Shown here: positions 2,451 through 25,257 of the stretch, one piece after another
How the letters are laid out: the number at the start of each line of letters is the position of its first letter
Position numbering within the stretch: position 1 is the stretch's first letter
Origin: a virus
Lineage: Duplodnaviria; Heunggongvirae; Uroviricota; Caudoviricetes
Length of the DNA: 25,257 nucleotides
Direction: 5' to 3' (one strand)
IMG/VR virus record: IMGVR_UViG_3300045921_000484
Coordinates: 1 to 25,257 of that record
The notes under the pieces: generated by a model
What the model saw: the letters and a program-made list of their open reading frames with translations, nothing else
Told to the model about the DNA's origin: nothing
Databases searched by the model: none
Made by a program: the position numbers and the translations under genes

Positions 2451-3812
2451 TTATTTCAATTCAATTTTTAGATATGTGTTTGAGAATGTAAGGTCGGGGT
2501 CTAATTTATGTTTTCTTAAAATAACAGACATTGATGATAATGTATTGTGTATTTCATCTATGCTAGAATCTTCTAAATCTATCCTTATAAATACAACGCC
2601 TTCATTACCAACAACTTTTGTTTCTGAATCAAATATAGACTCTTTAATATCCTTAATTAAGTGCTTGTATTTTTTTAATAATTCTTCATCAATTCCAACT
2701 TTTCTAACAGTTGGTAATGAGTTCCAATTAACTCTTAGAGTAGCTTGACATAACTTTATTAGATAAGTCATATTTTGGCTTTCATCTCTAGTATGTTCTT
2801 TATTATAACCAACAGAAACATTTGTGCATTCTGGTATTTGATCAATAAATGAAGCTGAATCAGTATATACACCAGTTGGATCTAATGATAATTTTAGACC
2901 ACTTTTATTAAATTCTTTACACAATGCTGTTGCGAACTCATTTGAACAGCATTTTCTACCCATTTGTTGCGTGATAACAGAGTGTGTTTTTCTTCTATCA
3001 AAAGAGATACATCTTTTGATGTTTTTTAAGTATTCTACTTCATCATACACATATGATAATTGATGAGATCCTATTCCACCTCTTTCTTCCCCAATGAAGA
3101 AATAGTATAGTCCTGGTATATTATGAGCCATCATATACATCATAATAGTTACACCTGATTTATCATCAGCTCCTAATATAGTATTACCATCTGTTATGAT
3201 ATATTCATTTCCTTCATGTATTACACTAAATAGATTAACTTCTGATTGATTTCTATCAGCCGTATCTAAGTGAGATGTGAACATTGTCTCAGGCTTATCA
3301 CCTATTATATAATAGTAGTTACCAACAACATCTTTTTTGAGGTTTTGTGGTAAGAATTTCAATACTTCATGTTCGTGTCCGTGCGGGTACGTCATTGTCA
3401 CCATTGACAGAAATGTTGATCTAACGTCTTTTGGGTTATATTTGAATTCACCCACTGTTATAGGTTTACCTCCAAATCTACTTTCTACTGTATCGCCTTT
3501 TACACCAGTTAATTTATGTATTCTATTTACGAATTTAGCGATATCCGACCTCATTATTGTTCCTTTGAAGAAATATTCAGCGAACCTATCTATCCTCATT
3601 GGACGAACCTTGTCATCAATTGTTACATCAAATGAACCAGGTGTTCTGGATAAATCTACTTTAGTTATTTTTAGACCATTATGATACTCAGCATCCGGTT
3701 CTGTCATCCATAGTAACTCGAAAGCCAAATATAGATTTTCACTTTCTAGTTTTTTTAATACACCTATAAGTGCTTTAGAGAATTCTATCTTTGGTAAACT
3801 GTTTTCTGACAT
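2451..3812 (-). CDS. M28-family (M20/M28 clan) zinc peptidase with N- and C-terminal extensions
   Basis: Metal-ligand motifs FTSHLDT, LGADDKSG, GEERGGIGS, ISFDRR, YTDSASF and SVGYNKEHT. Confidence 0.85.
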   Translation of the reverse strand: MSENSLPKIEFSKALIGVLKKLESENLYLAFELLWMTEPDAEYHNGLKITKVDLSRTPGSFDVTIDDKVRPMRIDRFAEYFFKGTIMRSDIAKFVNRIHKLTGVKGDTVESRFGGKPITVGEFKYNPKDVRSTFLSMVTMTYPHGHEHEVLKFLPQNLKKDVVGNYYYIIGDKPETMFTSHLDTADRNQSEVNLFSVIHEGNEYIITDGNTILGADDKSGVTIMMYMMAHNIPGLYYFFIGEERGGIGSHQLSYVYDEVEYLKNIKRCISFDRRKTHSVITQQMGRKCCSNEFATALCKEFNKSGLKLSLDPTGVYTDSASFIDQIPECTNVSVGYNKEHTRDESQNMTYLIKLCQATLRVNWNSLPTVRKVGIDEELLKKYKHLIKDIKESIFDSETKVVGNEGVVFIRIDLEDSSIDEIHNTLSSMSVILRKHKLDPDLTFSNTYLKIELK

Positions 3813-6395: not shown

Positions 6396-8474
6396 TTAGA
6401 TGTTTTTGAATCTTTCCATTATAGCTTGGACTTCTTTATCAGAAAGTTTATCTTCTTGTATTAAACTTTCATGTGACACAAGCTTCTTAGTAACAGATTC
6501 ATTTTTTTTGAGATTTCTAGTTAACCAGAAATGCTCAATTTGATTTTCAGTTTTTAATACATCTTCTGGGTATAATCTAGCTTGTGATAAGATAGACTTT
6601 TTAGAAGATTCATTTAACTGATTCCAGATTGGCTTAATGTTTTCAGGCATCAATCTGATTATTCTTTCTTCAAGAGATTCATTCTTAGATGAAAGTGCTT
6701 CAGCGATCAAAGAAAGTACATCTTTCTGTGTGAAATAACTTCTTTCGTTTATGTGAAGTTTAACAGTTTCTTGTTCTTCTTCTGATAGTGCATAAAAGCT
6801 ATCAACTTGTGACTTGTTCAAGAATTTTAAGAAATTCAAGTCAGTTGATTCAGAAACTTTACGTTTTTTAGCTTCTTCAATTAATTTATCAATAGATTTA
6901 GATAATTCTGTATCTGATTTGCCTTCGTATGTTGATTCTTCTTCATCTTTATTATCTTCCTCTTCTTCTTTATTATAAACCTTTTCTGAGTTAACTTTAG
7001 AAACACCATTTAATTCACAAGGTTCACATACTTCTTTTTCCTCTTCTTCCTCTTCTATATTTTCAAAACCAGCGTCTTGCAATGAAGGGAAAGATTCTTC
7101 AACAGATTCAAATAATTTACCACTGTTTAATTTCTCAACGATCATTCCTTGATAAGAAATAGATTTGTCAAGATTTTCAGCGATATATTCAGAATATGCA
7201 ATGTTGTCATCTAAATGTTCGGCAATGTACTCAGAGTAAGCAATGTTACCTTCGATATGTTCTGCTAAATATTCAGAATATGCAATTGAGTTATCAACAT
7301 GTTCAGCAATATATTCAGAATAGGAAATATTCTTGTCAAGATTTTCAGCTATATACTCAGAGTAAGCAATATTCTTATCTAAATTCTCAGCTAAATACTC
7401 AGAGTAAGCGATGTTCTTATCAAGATTTTCAGCAATATATTCAGAATAAGAAATATTCTTGTCAAGATTTTCAGCAATATATTCAGAATAAGAAATATTC
7501 TTATCTAAATTCTCAGCTAAATACTCAGAATATTCAATGTTTTTGTCAAGATTCTCAGCAAGATATTCAGAGTAGTTAATTGCTTTCTCTAGATTCTCAG
7601 CTAAGTAGTCATTGTGCTTAATAAGCTTTTCAGCTGTTTCTTTTAGAGATTTATTTTCATTAACAACAACCTGTACTTTTTCAGCCAAGTAATCAAGATA
7701 TTTAATCACTTGTGAGTTAGTTTTGTTTAATTCTTCATAGTATTCAATTAACTGCTCAAGTTTTTTAGGGTTCATATTACCCTTAGTGATGGCACTTTTA
7801 ACTTCTTTTTTAGTAGAAGCTATTTCATTAACTAAGTACTGAGAGTATTCAGTTAATTGTTTTTTTGTAACATAATCGTTCTTATTCATGTTAAATATCT
7901 CATTTATTTTGGACTCATCGGACATTTCATATATCCTAAAGTTAGATTTTGGGTTTGTGTAACCTAGAGACTCATTAAGAACTTTAACACTCATTTTAGC
8001 AGATGAGAAACCCGGATCCGCAACAATGTCATAAGTGAATAGCTTCTTTAATGAAACAGATCCATCAGATTCGGTAATACCTGCTGCTCTGGAAGAAACA
8101 AAAATAGGACACCCGTCATCGACAAGAGCCTTAGCTTCTTTACCCCAGTAAGTATTAAGTAATTTGATTTCACCTTCTACTTTGTTTGATTCTTTTACAT
8201 AAGAAGCTTTGGTAATAATGTGAGATGCTCTTGAAAGAGAAGTGTCAAATACATCGGGGTGATCAAACTCCCCATATACAACACCTAAGCTTTTAATTCT
8301 TTCATTAAGTTCATCAAGAGCAGGAAGGAATTTATCAGCGGTATATATTCTTTCGTTACGGTTTTTAACTCCGAACTCGGTAAAAGTACCGCCTAAAACA
8401 TAATCCTTCTTACCAGCACTGTTCTCTCTTATAAGAGAGCTAGTTGAATTTTCTACAATTAAAACTGGTTTCAT
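6396..8474 (-). CDS. gp21: Prohead protease (gp21-like) fused to a coiled-coil scaffold/core domain
   Basis: N-terminal part has NRNERIY, YGEFDHP, VSSRAAG and TYDIVADPGF (gp21 catalytic His/Ser motifs); followed by about 500 aa of helical, repetitive and acidic sequence. Confidence 0.9.
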   Translation of the reverse strand: MKPVLIVENSTSSLIRENSAGKKDYVLGGTFTEFGVKNRNERIYTADKFLPALDELNERIKSLGVVYGEFDHPDVFDTSLSRASHIITKASYVKESNKVEGEIKLLNTYWGKEAKALVDDGCPIFVSSRAAGITESDGSVSLKKLFTYDIVADPGFSSAKMSVKVLNESLGYTNPKSNFRIYEMSDESKINEIFNMNKNDYVTKKQLTEYSQYLVNEIASTKKEVKSAITKGNMNPKKLEQLIEYYEELNKTNSQVIKYLDYLAEKVQVVVNENKSLKETAEKLIKHNDYLAENLEKAINYSEYLAENLDKNIEYSEYLAENLDKNISYSEYIAENLDKNISYSEYIAENLDKNIAYSEYLAENLDKNIAYSEYIAENLDKNISYSEYIAEHVDNSIAYSEYLAEHIEGNIAYSEYIAEHLDDNIAYSEYIAENLDKSISYQGMIVEKLNSGKLFESVEESFPSLQDAGFENIEEEEEEKEVCEPCELNGVSKVNSEKVYNKEEEEDNKDEEESTYEGKSDTELSKSIDKLIEEAKKRKVSESTDLNFLKFLNKSQVDSFYALSEEEQETVKLHINERSYFTQKDVLSLIAEALSSKNESLEERIIRLMPENIKPIWNQLNESSKKSILSQARLYPEDVLKTENQIEHFWLTRNLKKNESVTKKLVSHESLIQEDKLSDKEVQAIMERFKNI
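7152..7613 (-). repeat. 11 tandem 42-bp (14-aa) repeats SEY(I/L)AE(N/H)LDKNI(S/A)Y inside the scaffold domain
   Basis: Counted directly in the translation and DNA. Confidence 0.95.
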
Positions 8475-21198: not shown

Positions 21199-22326
21199 AT
21201 GAAGCATCTTTTACGTTTTTCATTATTCGAGGAGGTTAATCCAAGAGACATTTCATTCGTTACACAAATGGATGACTATTTCACAGTCGCGTTTGAATTT
21301 GAAATAGAAACAGTTGATAAAAAAAACATCAAAATTGACTTTAGTATATTGTATGATGATGATGATGTTATTGATATGTTGGATATTATAATAAAGGAAA
21401 TGAATCTTAGAAAGAAATCCGAGAAGAAACTTGTTGAGGATATAATCTACTCTGTAATTGATGTGCTGGAGGAAGGGATAATAACAAAAAAATTAAAAAC
21501 AAATTACAAGATAATAGATGAGATGTTATTTGATATCTTCAATCCTGATAATTTTAAATCTAGTAGAGATGCCGAGATAGCTTCTTTTACTAAATCAATA
21601 TTAATGAGTCATATATTTAGCGAAGATTTGAGTTATATGAAGAAGCAAGCTAAAAAATATTTGCCGAATTTTACAAGAAAATGGGCTAGGAAAATAGACT
21701 ATGTTGGGGACGTGACTTTAGAAAGAGGAATAGAGATAAAACCTAAGAAATACCTTATTGGTTTGTCAGAAGGTATAGAAATGATAAATGATTTCTTCAC
21801 TGATTTCGAATCGCAGGATTATTGGAAATTCACCGATAGAACAGGATTGCATATTAACATTGGTGTTAATAAAAAAAATGTTGAGTGGAATCCTATAAAG
21901 GGTTTACTTATGTTGAATGATGTTGGTAAAGATGATTCAGTTCCATTGGTATTTAAGGATATGAACTGGAGAATGAATAATAAATTTTGTGGATCATTAA
22001 TTACATCTATTAGAAAAATAGATCCATCTAAGATAGATGATATCAAGAAGTCTATTAATATGAATGACATCAATTCAACAGAAGATTTTTTTAATAAATT
22101 TTTAACAGATAAGATAAAAGAATGGGGTTATAAGAACTTCGGATTTAATATTACAAAATTGGATCATAATTATGTAGAGTTTAGATATGTTGGTGGTGTT
22201 ATATCTAGAGAGTTGCTTATAAATAAATTAAAGTATTTTTCATTTATTGTATATGCCATGACTAACAAGGATTATAAAAGAAGAGAATATCTAAAGAAGT
22301 TATATAAGTTTGTTGATAGCTTATAA
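21199..22326 (+). CDS. Putative amidoligase (COOH-NH2 ligase family) with capsid-targeting-like N-terminus
   Basis: FTVAFEFEIE, GDVTLERGIEI, TGLHINIG and YVEFRYVGG; N-terminus MKHLLRFSLFEE; TAATATATA at 21182-21190. Confidence 0.75.
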   Translation: MKHLLRFSLFEEVNPRDISFVTQMDDYFTVAFEFEIETVDKKNIKIDFSILYDDDDVIDMLDIIIKEMNLRKKSEKKLVEDIIYSVIDVLEEGIITKKLKTNYKIIDEMLFDIFNPDNFKSSRDAEIASFTKSILMSHIFSEDLSYMKKQAKKYLPNFTRKWARKIDYVGDVTLERGIEIKPKKYLIGLSEGIEMINDFFTDFESQDYWKFTDRTGLHINIGVNKKNVEWNPIKGLLMLNDVGKDDSVPLVFKDMNWRMNNKFCGSLITSIRKIDPSKIDDIKKSINMNDINSTEDFFNKFLTDKIKEWGYKNFGFNITKLDHNYVEFRYVGGVISRELLINKLKYFSFIVYAMTNKDYKRREYLKKLYKFVDSL

Positions 22327-22339
22327 TCAATTATTGCAT

Positions 22340-23170
22340 TTAATTAATAAAAGAATATTTTTTTATCAATTTTATCAATTCACTTTCTGTTTTAGGCTTT
22401 CTTATTTGGTCTAGAAAATCGATTAATCTATCAAGAAAAATTGAATCTCCTTGAATAATATCCATATCGTTAAATAATTCTATTTTATCTTTATCCTTAA
22501 ATAAATTCCATATTTGAAATACTGGGTTAAATTGACAGTAGAAATCACCACCAATCCATTCTGGACTGCCTTCTAGTGAAATTAATTTGTTATTGTCACA
22601 GTAGAAATTTCCACCAACCGATTTAGGACTTCCTTCTAGTGAAATTAATTTGTTGTTGTCACAGTAGAAATCACTACCAACCGATTTAGGACTACCTTCT
22701 AGTGAAGTTAGGTTGTTATTGGAACACCAGAAATCCCTACCAACTGATTTAGGACTACCTTTTAGTGAGGTTAGGTTGTTATAGGAACAGTAGAAACCCC
22801 CACTAATCGATTCGGGACTGCCTTCTAGTGAACTTAGATTGTTATTACGACAGTAGAAATCATCACCAACCCATTCAGGAGCATCTTCTAGAGAGGTTAG
22901 GTTGTTAAAAGAACAGTCGAAATCTCCACCAACCGATTTAGGACCTCCTTCTAGAGAGGTTAGGTTGTTAAAGGGACAGTAGAAATTACCGGTAACATTT
23001 CTAAATTTAATGGGTATTTTATCCAATTCTTTATAGGATAGATCAACATCACCATCTACATCAATAGATCCATCACTATTTATAGTAAAATTTTGTATAC
23101 TGTACTCACTACATGTTGATTCAATATCCTTGTTGGATTCAAATAATCTGTATTGAATTAGGTGTTTCAT
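22340..23170 (-). CDS. Leucine-rich repeat protein, paralog A (7 full 21-aa repeats)
   Basis: Start reassigned to ATG 23170 (MKHLIQYRLFES) by parallel with paralog B and the promoter at 23175-23183; repeats xFxCxxNxL(T/I)SLEGxPxxVGx. Confidence 0.85.
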   Translation of the reverse strand: MKHLIQYRLFESNKDIESTCSEYSIQNFTINSDGSIDVDGDVDLSYKELDKIPIKFRNVTGNFYCPFNNLTSLEGGPKSVGGDFDCSFNNLTSLEDAPEWVGDDFYCRNNNLSSLEGSPESISGGFYCSYNNLTSLKGSPKSVGRDFWCSNNNLTSLEGSPKSVGSDFYCDNNKLISLEGSPKSVGGNFYCDNNKLISLEGSPEWIGGDFYCQFNPVFQIWNLFKDKDKIELFNDMDIIQGDSIFLDRLIDFLDQIRKPKTESELIKLIKKYSFIN

Positions 23171-23180
23171 TATGTATATA

Positions 23181-24074
23181 TTAAAGGATAAATTTATAAT
23201 CATTAATTAACTTTCTTAATTCAATTTCCGTTTTTGGCTTGCCTATTTGGTCTAGAAAATAGATTAATCTATTAAGAATAACGGAATTACCTTGGATAAT
23301 ATCCATATCATTAAATAATTCTATTTTATCTTTATCTCTAAATAAATTCCATATCTGTTCTACTGGGTTATTTTTACAGTCGAAACGACCATCAATTGAT
23401 TCCGGAGCACCTTCTAGTGAAATTAGTTTGTTATTAGAACACCAGAATTCACTACCAACCCATTTAGGACTGCCTTCTAGTGAAATTAGTTTGTTATTGC
23501 AACAGAAGAAAACACCACTAACTGATTTAGGACCGCCTTCTAGTGAGGTTAGTTTGTTATTAGAACAGAAGAAACCACCACTAACCGATTTAGGACTGCC
23601 TTCTAGTGAGGTTAGTTTGTTAAAGGAACATTCAAAATTTCTACCAACTGATTCAGGACAGCCTTCTAGATAGGTTAGATTGTTATAGGAACAGTTGAAA
23701 TCACCGCTAACTGATTCAGGGCCTCCTTCTAGTGAAGTTAGGTTGTTATAGGAACAAATAAAATCCCCAAAAATCAATTTAGGACATCCCTCTAGTGAAG
23801 TTAGTTTGTTATTACGACAGTATAAATGACCACCAACCGATTTGGGACAACCTTTTAGTGAAGTTAGATTGTTATTGGAACAGTAGAAATTACCACTTAC
23901 ATTTCTAAATTTAAGGGGTATTCTATCTAATCCTTTATCAGATAGATTAACATTACCATTCACATCAATAGATCCATCAATATTTATAGTAAAACTTTGT
24001 ATACCATATTCTTTACATATAGATTTAATATCCTTATTAGATTCAAATAATCTATATTTAATTAAATATTTCAT
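23181..24074 (-). CDS. Leucine-rich repeat protein, paralog B (8 full 21-aa repeats)
   Basis: MKYLIKYRLFES start, promoter at 24079-24087, same N- and C-terminal caps as paralog A. Confidence 0.88.
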   Translation of the reverse strand: MKYLIKYRLFESNKDIKSICKEYGIQSFTINIDGSIDVNGNVNLSDKGLDRIPLKFRNVSGNFYCSNNNLTSLKGCPKSVGGHLYCRNNKLTSLEGCPKLIFGDFICSYNNLTSLEGGPESVSGDFNCSYNNLTYLEGCPESVGRNFECSFNKLTSLEGSPKSVSGGFFCSNNKLTSLEGGPKSVSGVFFCCNNKLISLEGSPKWVGSEFWCSNNKLISLEGAPESIDGRFDCKNNPVEQIWNLFRDKDKIELFNDMDIIQGNSVILNRLIYFLDQIGKPKTEIELRKLINDYKFIL

Positions 24075-24084
24075 AATGTATATA

Positions 24085-25257
24085 TTAAAGGATAAATCTA
24101 TAATCCTTAATAACCCTTCTTAATTCTTCTTCACTTTTAGGCTTGCCTATTTGGTCTAGAAAATCGATTAATCTATTAAGAATAATTGAATCCCCTTGAA
24201 TAATATCCATATCATTAAATAATTCTATTTTATCCTTATCCTCAAATAATTTCCATATTTGATAGACTGGGTTATATTGACAGTTGAAATAACCTCCAAT
24301 TGATTCCGGAGCACCTTCTAGTAAAATTAGTTTGTTATTAGAGCAATAGAAATCTCTAACAACCGATTTAGGACCGCCTTCTAGTGAAGTTAGGTTGTTA
24401 TTGTAACACCAGAAATCTCTACCAACCGATTTAGGACCGCCTTCTAGTGAAGTTAGGTTGTTACTGTGGCAGTAGAAACCACCATCAACCGATTTAGGAC
24501 CGCCTTCTAGTGAAATTAGTTTGTTATTAGAACACCAGAAATCTCCACCAACACATTTATGACCGCCTTCTAGTGAAATTAGTTTGTTATTGTTGCAGTA
24601 GAAATTCCCACCAACCGATTTAGGACCGCCTTCTAGTGAAGTTAGGTTGTTATTGTAACATTTGAAATGACCACCAACCGATTTAGGACCGCCCTCTAGC
24701 GAAGTTAGATTGTTATTGAAACAGTGGAAATCTCCACCAACCGATTTAGGACCGCCTTGTAGTGAAGTTAGGTTATTATTGTTGCAGTAGAAACTCACAC
24801 TAATAGATTCGGGACAACCTTCTAGTGAAGTTAGGTTGTTATAGGAGCAGTAGAAACTACCACCAACCGATTTAGGACCCCCTTCTAGTGAAGTTAGATT
24901 GTTATTGTCACAATAGAAATCCCTACCAGCCGATTTAGGACAGCCTTCTAATGAAGATAGGTTGTTATAGGAACAAATAAAATCACTACCAACTGATTCC
25001 GGTGATCCTTCTAGTGAAGTTAGGTTGTTATAGGAGCAGTTGAAATCACTACCAACTGATTCCGGTGACCCTTCTAGTGAAGTTAGATTGTTATTGTAAC
25101 AGTAGAAATGACCACCAACCGATTCAGGACAGCCTTCTAAAGAGGTTAATTTGTTATAGGAACAGTTGAAATTACCACTTACATTTCTAAATTTAATGGG
25201 TAGTTTATCTAATTCTTTACCGGATAGATCAACATCACCATTTACGTCAATAGATCC
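24085..25257 (-). CDS. Leucine-rich repeat protein, paralog C (14 full 21-aa repeats), 5' end outside the window
   Basis: Frame is open from the window edge (GSIDVNGDVDLSGKELDKLPIKFRNV...) to TAA 24085-24087. Confidence 0.88.
   Translation of the reverse strand, partial: GSIDVNGDVDLSGKELDKLPIKFRNVSGNFNCSYNKLTSLEGCPESVGGHFYCYNNNLTSLEGSPESVGSDFNCSYNNLTSLEGSPESVGSDFICSYNNLSSLEGCPKSAGRDFYCDNNNLTSLEGGPKSVGGSFYCSYNNLTSLEGCPESISVSFYCNNNNLTSLQGGPKSVGGDFHCFNNNLTSLEGGPKSVGGHFKCYNNNLTSLEGGPKSVGGNFYCNNNKLISLEGGHKCVGGDFWCSNNKLISLEGGPKSVDGGFYCHSNNLTSLEGGPKSVGRDFWCYNNNLTSLEGGPKSVVRDFYCSNNKLILLEGAPESIGGYFNCQYNPVYQIWKLFEDKDKIELFNDMDIIQGDSIILNRLIDFLDQIGKPKSEEELRRVIKDYRFIL

Follow-up and report, generated by a model that had tools for sequence, protein, structure and literature searches.

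A recombining family of leucine-rich repeat genes in a T4-like megaphage and its possible loading into the phage head

The window, i.e. the whole 25,257-base stretch of DNA that was analysed, ends in a tandem array of leucine-rich repeat (LRR) genes. On balance, we lean towards reading these genes as belonging to a family of small LRR binding proteins that a T4-like megaphage inherits and carries at several loci, and that would be loaded into the head and ejected in the manner proposed below. The reality of the feature, the LRR fold and the recombination are each very likely. The window represents the first part of a linear virus record of 195,295 bases (28.8% GC). Since CheckV puts this record at 34% completeness, the whole phage genome probably exceeds 500 kb. 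Profile matches in the window identify genes for a T4-type major capsid protein (Gp23), a portal protein (Portal_T4) and a prohead protease (Peptidase_S77/phrog_207), and the contig is that of an uncultured T4-like megaphage.

The three LRR genes of the window all lie on the minus strand. Paralog A (22340–23170) encodes 276 residues and has its seven full repeats at 22556–22996; B (23181–24074) encodes 297 residues with eight full repeats (23397–23900). Paralog C (24085–25257 in the window) encodes 423 residues with 14 full repeats (24301–25182) and starts past the window edge, at position 25356 of the record. Behind the leader, all three share a 58-residue N-cap, 7, 8 or 14 full 21-residue repeats, a final half-repeat of 10 residues and a C-terminal domain of about 61 residues. 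We thereby re-derived from the sequence the three capped paralogs of the preliminary description, in which adjacent peptide duplicates within A and C (both present) and a common start of A and B had also been noted; this start is real, and C begins with the same leader just past the window edge. A fourth copy, with a 1-nt frameshift near position 26008, is situated upstream of C just outside the window (record 25364–26133), and separate loci hold copies D–E (record 109171–110842), F–G (record 131136–133199) and H–I (record 176977–178777), which brings the 195-kb contig to ten copies at four loci, or 4.8% of its length.

Another 17 genes of the same close family were found on contigs of two JGI samples, with 3–13 repeats each and grouped into arrays, the largest of seven or more genes. 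Their flanks do not overlap the 195-kb contig, their GC content is similar and tetranucleotides do not discriminate; the sister loci concerned (L010, L011, L013 and L015) could come from the portion of this genome that the contig lacks or from a sister phage. All 27 genes contain a whole number of repeats, ranging from 3 to 14, and 26 of the 27 have intact frames. No two of the 80 repeats on the 195-kb contig are alike in DNA (80/80 distinct), and the 204 repeats of the 27 genes display 118 different four-residue combinations at the face positions described below.

Residues F5, C7, N10, L12, S14, L15, G17 and P19 of the repeat are nearly invariant (entropy 0–0.3 bit), which bears out the near-constant scaffold (F, C, N-x-L-x-S-L-E-G-x-P) described before. 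Of the four positions originally called hypervariable, 4, 6 and 8 deserve the term (2.4–2.7 bits), whereas position 9 reaches only 1.4–1.8 bits, and position 18 (G/S/C/A; 2.0 bits), with a variability like that of position 9, had been missed. Moderate variation is seen at positions 2, 3 and 11. Among the 204 repeats, V1 is present in 90%, G3 in 74%, and F5, C7, N10 and L12 in about 99% each. The repeat thus contains the 12-residue core VxGx(L/F)x(L/C)xxNxL, with Gly between the first Val and the second hydrophobic residue, that defines a 'novel' LRR class (Miyashita et al. 2014, PMID 24164306, as summarised in PMC8181103), and it agrees with that core letter for letter (V1, G3, F5, C7, N10, L12). 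Judged by sequence and model, it can be assigned to this class of the LRR superfamily. The class, as given in that summary, was described from unicellular eukaryotes and bacteria, whereas the present copies belong to tailed phages and differ by a 21-residue unit with its own variable segment, a phage leader and an unnamed C-terminal domain.

An AlphaFold model of B (pLDDT 95; residues 1–9 disordered) shows periodic strands, with two short strands per turn. In structure searches with this model, all top matches are LRR proteins (SDS22, YopM and IpaH; Z 17–18, TM-score about 0.5), in support of the proposed LRR fold. The best sequence match among solved structures is Listeria internalin J (PDB 3bz5; E 5e-17), which has the same 21-residue register with its Cys aligned. 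Both the DSSP register and the internalin J alignment place positions 4, 6, 8 and 9 at canonical x sites, as the earlier account had anticipated; by register, the buried Phe of the strand lies between positions 4 and 6, and the Cys is followed by 8 and 9. The x positions of an LRR strand are the exposed residues of the sheet face, and positions 4, 6, 8 and 9 are accordingly predicted to form the exposed face of the β-sheet.

The phage proteins share the LRR solenoid with internalin J, YopM, IpaH and SspH, but differ from them in overall shape (the TM-score given above) and in the second strand per turn of the model. Unlike bacterial-type LRR effectors, they lack a secretion signal, an anchor and an E3 ligase domain. 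Membership of the internalin J or IpaH–SspH effector families was rejected, as scores of 34–74 bits compare with NCBIfam cut-offs above 1,200. Pfam matches to MYEOV2, LRRNT and hemopexin are noise below cut-off, and tblastn matches to a Lak phage and a Listeria 'phage' are weak and generic for LRRs. The C-terminal 61 residues (minus strand; 22340–22525 in A, 23181–23366 in B and 24085–24270 in C) are modelled as a confidently folded α/β domain (pLDDT 96). No solved structure matches this domain at Z ≥ 5 (best PDB match, Z 3.5), which in itself is not evidence of a new fold, and its Atlas matches are unnamed viral clusters only. The domain is also found on a few non-LRR phage proteins.

The sequence statistics of the copies point to pervasive short-tract gene conversion and unequal crossover across the whole gene. 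A 38-bp tract that had drawn attention earlier (23410–23447 in the last repeat of B, identical to 24503–24540 in repeat 11 of C) proves to be a perfect match with just these two occurrences in the genome, but a single match of this kind is weak evidence, with 2.5 and up to 12 expected under codon-column permutation. The 195-kb contig as a whole contains 25 in-register identical runs of at least 38 nt (2.5 expected under the same permutation), and the 27 genes contain seven of at least 80 nt (0.35 expected under whole-repeat permutation); among these is a 188-nt run common to D (six repeats) and a nine-repeat gene at another locus. In a tree of repeats, the gene label changes 56 times, compared with 58 for shuffled labels and a minimum of 9, so that repeats do not cluster by gene, the outcome expected from exchange among copies.

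Linkage (r2) falls to background beyond ∼ 12 nt and is confined to neighbouring codons, and recurrent mutation may add to this low value. N-cap and C-cap distances are uncorrelated (Mantel rho 0.015), as are the two halves of one cap, while the first and last repeats retain position-specific signatures. Of the 160 cross-gene identical tracts of at least 40 nt, 127 cover no whole face block. The idea of module shuffling therefore stands as regards exchange among copies, but the intact 63-bp cassette has to be given up as its unit, given the sub-module tracts, the linkage of neighbouring codons only and caps that recombine as freely as the repeats. Since length changes in whole 63-bp steps and sequence in shorter patches, both unequal crossover and gene conversion are likely to have contributed. 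A RecA/UvsX-family gene is present at record positions 122645–123421.

Pairwise dN/dS at positions 4, 6, 8 and 9 is 1.57 (95% bootstrap by gene 1.41–1.76; 27 genes), a value to be read with an uneven synonymous baseline and a bootstrap that treats recombining genes as independent; the other repeat positions give 0.28 and the caps 0.29–0.34. The excess of amino acid change suggested for the face is thus seen in the per-position comparison. On the 195-kb contig alone, the face value is 1.43. Position 6 (2.45) and position 8 (1.91), both with a lower bootstrap bound above 1.6, exceed positions 18 (1.40), 4 (1.30) and 9 (1.02). Close independent repeat pairs give only 1.3 for the face and 1.0 for position 9, and the face varies less than the third, synonymous base of G17. 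From these ratios, purifying selection on the scaffold is firm, and we regard diversifying selection on the face as likely. The face consists mainly of Asn (28%), Tyr (20%), Ser (15%) and Asp (14%), with additional His, Trp and Phe and almost no aliphatic residues; Thr, Lys, Ala and Val are almost missing although they are one step away. The same positions vary, with similar residues, in 120 distant homologs.

The leader of A (23138–23170, minus strand) comprises 11 codons ending in L-F-E and, like that of B (24042–24074, minus strand), resembles a capsid-targeting sequence. Upstream of each lies the late-type promoter motif TTTAATATATA (minus strand; 23175–23185 for A, 24079–24089 for B), whose TAA is the stop codon of B and C, respectively. 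This overlap with the stop codon is found for each upstream copy, and the motif is absent at copies D and Z. It occurs 45 times compared with 5 for a control, with sites in front of the capsid, protease, portal and sheath genes among them, and leader and promoter are associated in non-LRR genes too (p 0.03). The gene that flanks the array (21199–22326, plus strand, convergent with it) carries a leader and promoter of the same kind. A leader pattern of Met-Lys, paired aromatics and Glu, composed with knowledge of both the T4 and the contig leaders, is found at 42 of 206 ORF starts on the 195-kb contig in comparison with 10 of 774 internal Met, and selects only IPII and IPIII among 28 T4 ORFs. 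These results uphold the earlier suggestion of a packaging tag to the extent that the leader resembles a T4 capsid-targeting sequence and follows a late-type promoter.

The LRR leader is common to about 34 unrelated genes and predicted to be disordered. It has the Lys/aromatic/Glu propeptide and (I/L)-x-E cleavage site of the T4 type, with a spacing unlike T4, as the Glu of L-F-E directly follows the second aromatic residue; some other leaders of the 195-kb contig have the exact T4 spacing. A gp21-type protease and a T4-type head are provided by the window genes named above. The leader is eroded in three copies (G and the first genes of L013 and L015) and present in just 3 of 30 long homologs, and the Vibrio phage homologs have neither leader nor caps; among these phages, the cultured VB_VaC_SRILMA has a single homolog of the repeat class (WXB48033.1). 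The LRR proteins are acidic solenoids of 21–47 kDa, and their sequences show neither a signal peptide nor a membrane segment.

In T4, the internal proteins IPII and IPIII bear a 10-residue capsid-targeting sequence that gp21 cleaves off, and IPI acts as an inhibitor of a restriction enzyme (PMC9026906). The two systems share a short Lys/aromatic/Glu leader on unrelated proteins, a phage of the gp20/gp21/gp23 type and variable accessory cargo. However, the T4 proteins are small, basic and non-repetitive with unrelated mature parts, whereas the phage LRRs are acidic, recombining paralogs with a different leader spacing. Head paralog family B of SPN3US (PMC5694885) likewise comprises about 20 paralogous head proteins, of a role not known, in one jumbo phage; this phage is phiKZ-like and the proteins are not LRRs, and they were found in virions by mass spectrometry. 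By analogy with such systems, late expression and head packaging of the LRR proteins seem fairly probable, and an injected anti-defence role rather doubtful; PADLOC returned no match for the LRR proteins.

We propose the following scheme. Each gene is self-contained, because the stop codon of one copy sits in the promoter of the next with a 10-nt spacer, and it is as whole genes that copies multiply in tandem and found new loci. Homologous recombination, for which the phage's own RecA/UvsX is the candidate enzyme, changes repeat number in 63-bp steps and carries short patches, kept in register, from repeat to repeat and from cap to cap, thus homogenising the scaffold and recombining face residues. 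Selection keeps the scaffold and probably favours new Tyr/Asn/Asp/Ser/His/Trp face combinations, as for binders of a variable partner. Through late transcription and the leader, the proteins would enter the prohead and there be cut after L-F-E by the gp21-type protease. Finally, and most tentatively, the proteins might be ejected with the DNA and bind strain-variable proteins of the host, probably a member of the Bacteroidota; on the precedent of T4 IPI*, defence proteins would be the first candidates.

The family works like other inherited, recombining LRR families. Tetrahymena LRR genes with 90-bp exons (PMC6564038) and FNIP proteins of giant viruses (PMC9525666) are also inherited and shaped by unequal crossover and gene conversion; unlike the phage family, they are eukaryotic or eukaryote-infecting and have no capsid-targeting leader. 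Lamprey and hagfish VLRs (PMC3900441, PMC12264053) share constant caps, a variable LRR number, diversity on the same strand face and patchwork exchange with the phage genes, but are put together in somatic cells from donor cassettes, with the involvement of cytosine deaminases. Each phage copy, in contrast, is a complete inherited gene, with about 10–30 variants per genome.

A programmed diversifier, acting in each infection through VLR-like donor cassettes or DGR-like retro-mutagenesis, is the reading closest to the 'antibody-like' mechanism first suggested, and is largely refuted. The face codons do resemble AAY codons altered at bases 1–2 with base 3 fixed, the contig is only 34% complete, and hundreds of variant contigs map to the array in the reads, though paralogs account for these. 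Nevertheless, 89 of 92 nhmmer matches on the 195-kb contig fall inside complete genes (the other three have E > 0.3), leaving no orphan donor cassette, and its ten N-caps pair with ten C-caps (10:10), leaving no empty germline gene. No non-coding repeat copy that could serve as DGR template is present in this contig, and no reverse transcriptase (RVT_1) in the contig, in G001 or in the complete relatives LR756501 and PP083314, all three of which bear arrays or homologs; in none of the 204 repeats do the synonymous adenines of L12 and L15 vary. Moreover, two strains with 23 flank SNPs show zero differences across 1.7 kb of array, and another array-bearing phage differs at a single site of 7,253 nt when two samples are compared. 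Because cassettes are missing from the 195-kb contig and reverse transcriptase from the records searched, and arrays are identical in close strains, neither a VLR- nor a DGR-type system fits, and the repertoire, on this sequence evidence, is passed on by descent and changes over evolutionary time. Equally improbable is an assembly artefact, in which repeat number and order would be chimeras of a tangled graph. The reads were represented by Logan contigs from at most two samples, with no RNA run among those listed; these contigs fragment inside the array, none spans it, and 574 of 1250 pieces fit two places; the joints between pieces are uninterpretable because paralogs cross-map. The exact repeat order given for B and C is that of the assembly. 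However, pieces of single-copy depth match the right flank of A, A repeats 1–3, the B N-cap and the region upstream of the array without differences, and separate assemblies reproduce the sister arrays exactly, so that wholesale misassembly is unlikely; the distinct repeats and the open frames with whole-number repeats also argue against it.

Two further alternatives, each unlikely in our view, accept both fold and recombination. In one, the expansion is largely neutral or selfish and driven by recombination-dependent replication, and the surface drifts while only the fold is selected. The promoter that overlaps the stop codon would ease duplication, one copy is frameshifted, and the low face dN/dS of close pairs together with unevenly constrained synonymous sites weakens the case for selection. 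A relative also has no array at the syntenic position: an ortholog of the flanking gene (70% identity) is found there in the same gene order, but next to it stands another leader-type gene; this closest relative lacks the array, and the searched records contained no orthologous allele of this exact array. Against drift stand the 26 of 27 intact genes, the dN/dS of 0.28–0.34 in scaffold and caps, the bootstrap bounds at positions 6 and 8, the strongly non-random face residues and the recurrence of the same variable positions in the distant homologs. The other alternative keeps selected binders but not their injection, and assigns them a late role inside the infected cell, directed for instance at superinfecting phages, satellites or host proteins that act late, or a place as head filler or surface decoration. 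A late-type promoter suits any late role, size and acidity are unlike those of T4 internal proteins, leaderless homologs exist, and docking might be the task of the conserved C-terminal domain. The proposed loading and ejection are favoured over this by a disordered, L-x-E-terminated leader that is shared with so many unrelated genes and matches T4 IPII/IPIII, and by sequences in which signal peptides and membrane segments are not visible.

Phages seldom have paralog families, yet here LRR paralogs fill about 5% of the contig. The wider family consists of thousands of unannotated viral proteins: 6,973 of 8,000 candidates match at E 1e-10 or better (hence more than 6,900 clusters), with the same variable positions, and its Atlas clusters are 98–100% viral. 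Arrays of their own are also present in other megaphages, where the leader is of another type (28 matches in G001 and 7 in LR756501). A search of open-access text yielded no published description of this family in phages, and the combination of LRR, recombination and leader in tailed phages appears to be undescribed, while every ingredient has precedent. If packaged and injected, the proteins would make up a large class of cargo for counter-defence or host takeover that is open to testing, and would offer a handle on megaphage head contents; their face residues would point to fast-evolving host targets. It is a doubtful extrapolation that T4-like megaphages widely carry a packaged, injected library of recombining LRR binders that neutralises strain-variable host defence proteins; such a library would amount to 'adaptive' counter-immunity at the level of the phage population, and its compact scaffolds, with a C-terminal docking domain not described before, would be a natural source of binders. 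Even without packaging, the family is a clear case of NLR/VLR-style face diversification in a phage through ordinary recombination. The sequencing runs that contain DNA of the contig are hot-spring or microbial-mat metagenomes, probably from a single campaign.

The leader of the LRR genes is also found on other cargo. On a contig with a sister array (L011), a non-LRR gene that directly follows the LRR array (L011:6355-6909) begins with the 12-residue leader of the LRR genes and shares their spacer, which indicates that the promoter-plus-leader unit is swapped onto other cargo. The LRR family's C-terminal domain appears to be a mobile, unnamed phage domain, since it also terminates the leader-bearing non-LRR proteins P0187 (L028:846-1457) and P0165; DUF7448 is present in one of the leader-bearing proteins with this ending. 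In a relative, the slot that corresponds to the array and the adjoining 541-aa DUF7487 gene of the megaphage contig (G000) is occupied by a different leader-type gene (L022:1468-1857).

The cultured Vibrio phages SRILMA and TDDLMA have one protein of near-identical repeats of the same LRR class, without caps and without a leader (L009:5947-6582 in a Vibrio phage), and the variable positions in its repeats are those of the G000 family. In another phage, 12 LRR genes lie in tandem and overlap one another (L017:3751-12724). Their leader differs from that of the G000 genes and their C-cap is short, and this array seems to be an independent expansion.

In the G17 codon of the repeats (window 23397-23900, for example), all four bases occur at the synonymous third position, each at high frequency, whereas the synonymous third bases of L12, L15 and codon 9 are almost invariant.

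The fourth LRR copy (G000 25364-26133, minus strand; L001:5365-6134) comprises six repeats and has a 1-nt frameshift near G000 26008. In two runs, contigs spanning this site contain the extra base, with a depth of approximately twice that of single-copy sequence. The extra base may reflect a misassembly, an allelic variant or signal from a paralog.

A Bacteroidota host is hinted at by the near-absence of Shine-Dalgarno motifs at G000 ORF starts (AGGAG in 2 of 206) and by a CHU_C (T9SS-type) protein encoded on a sister contig (L015:144-2762).

A protease-scaffold fusion (window 6396-8474) contains approximately ten 14-aa tandem repeats in its scaffold part, rich in (L/I)-A-E sites that fit T4-type cleavage specificity. 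The phrog_4191 peptidases form a second paralog family of three to four members with ∼46% identity (window 2451-3812; G000 76303-77436 and 144363-145481; L011:11778-13031).
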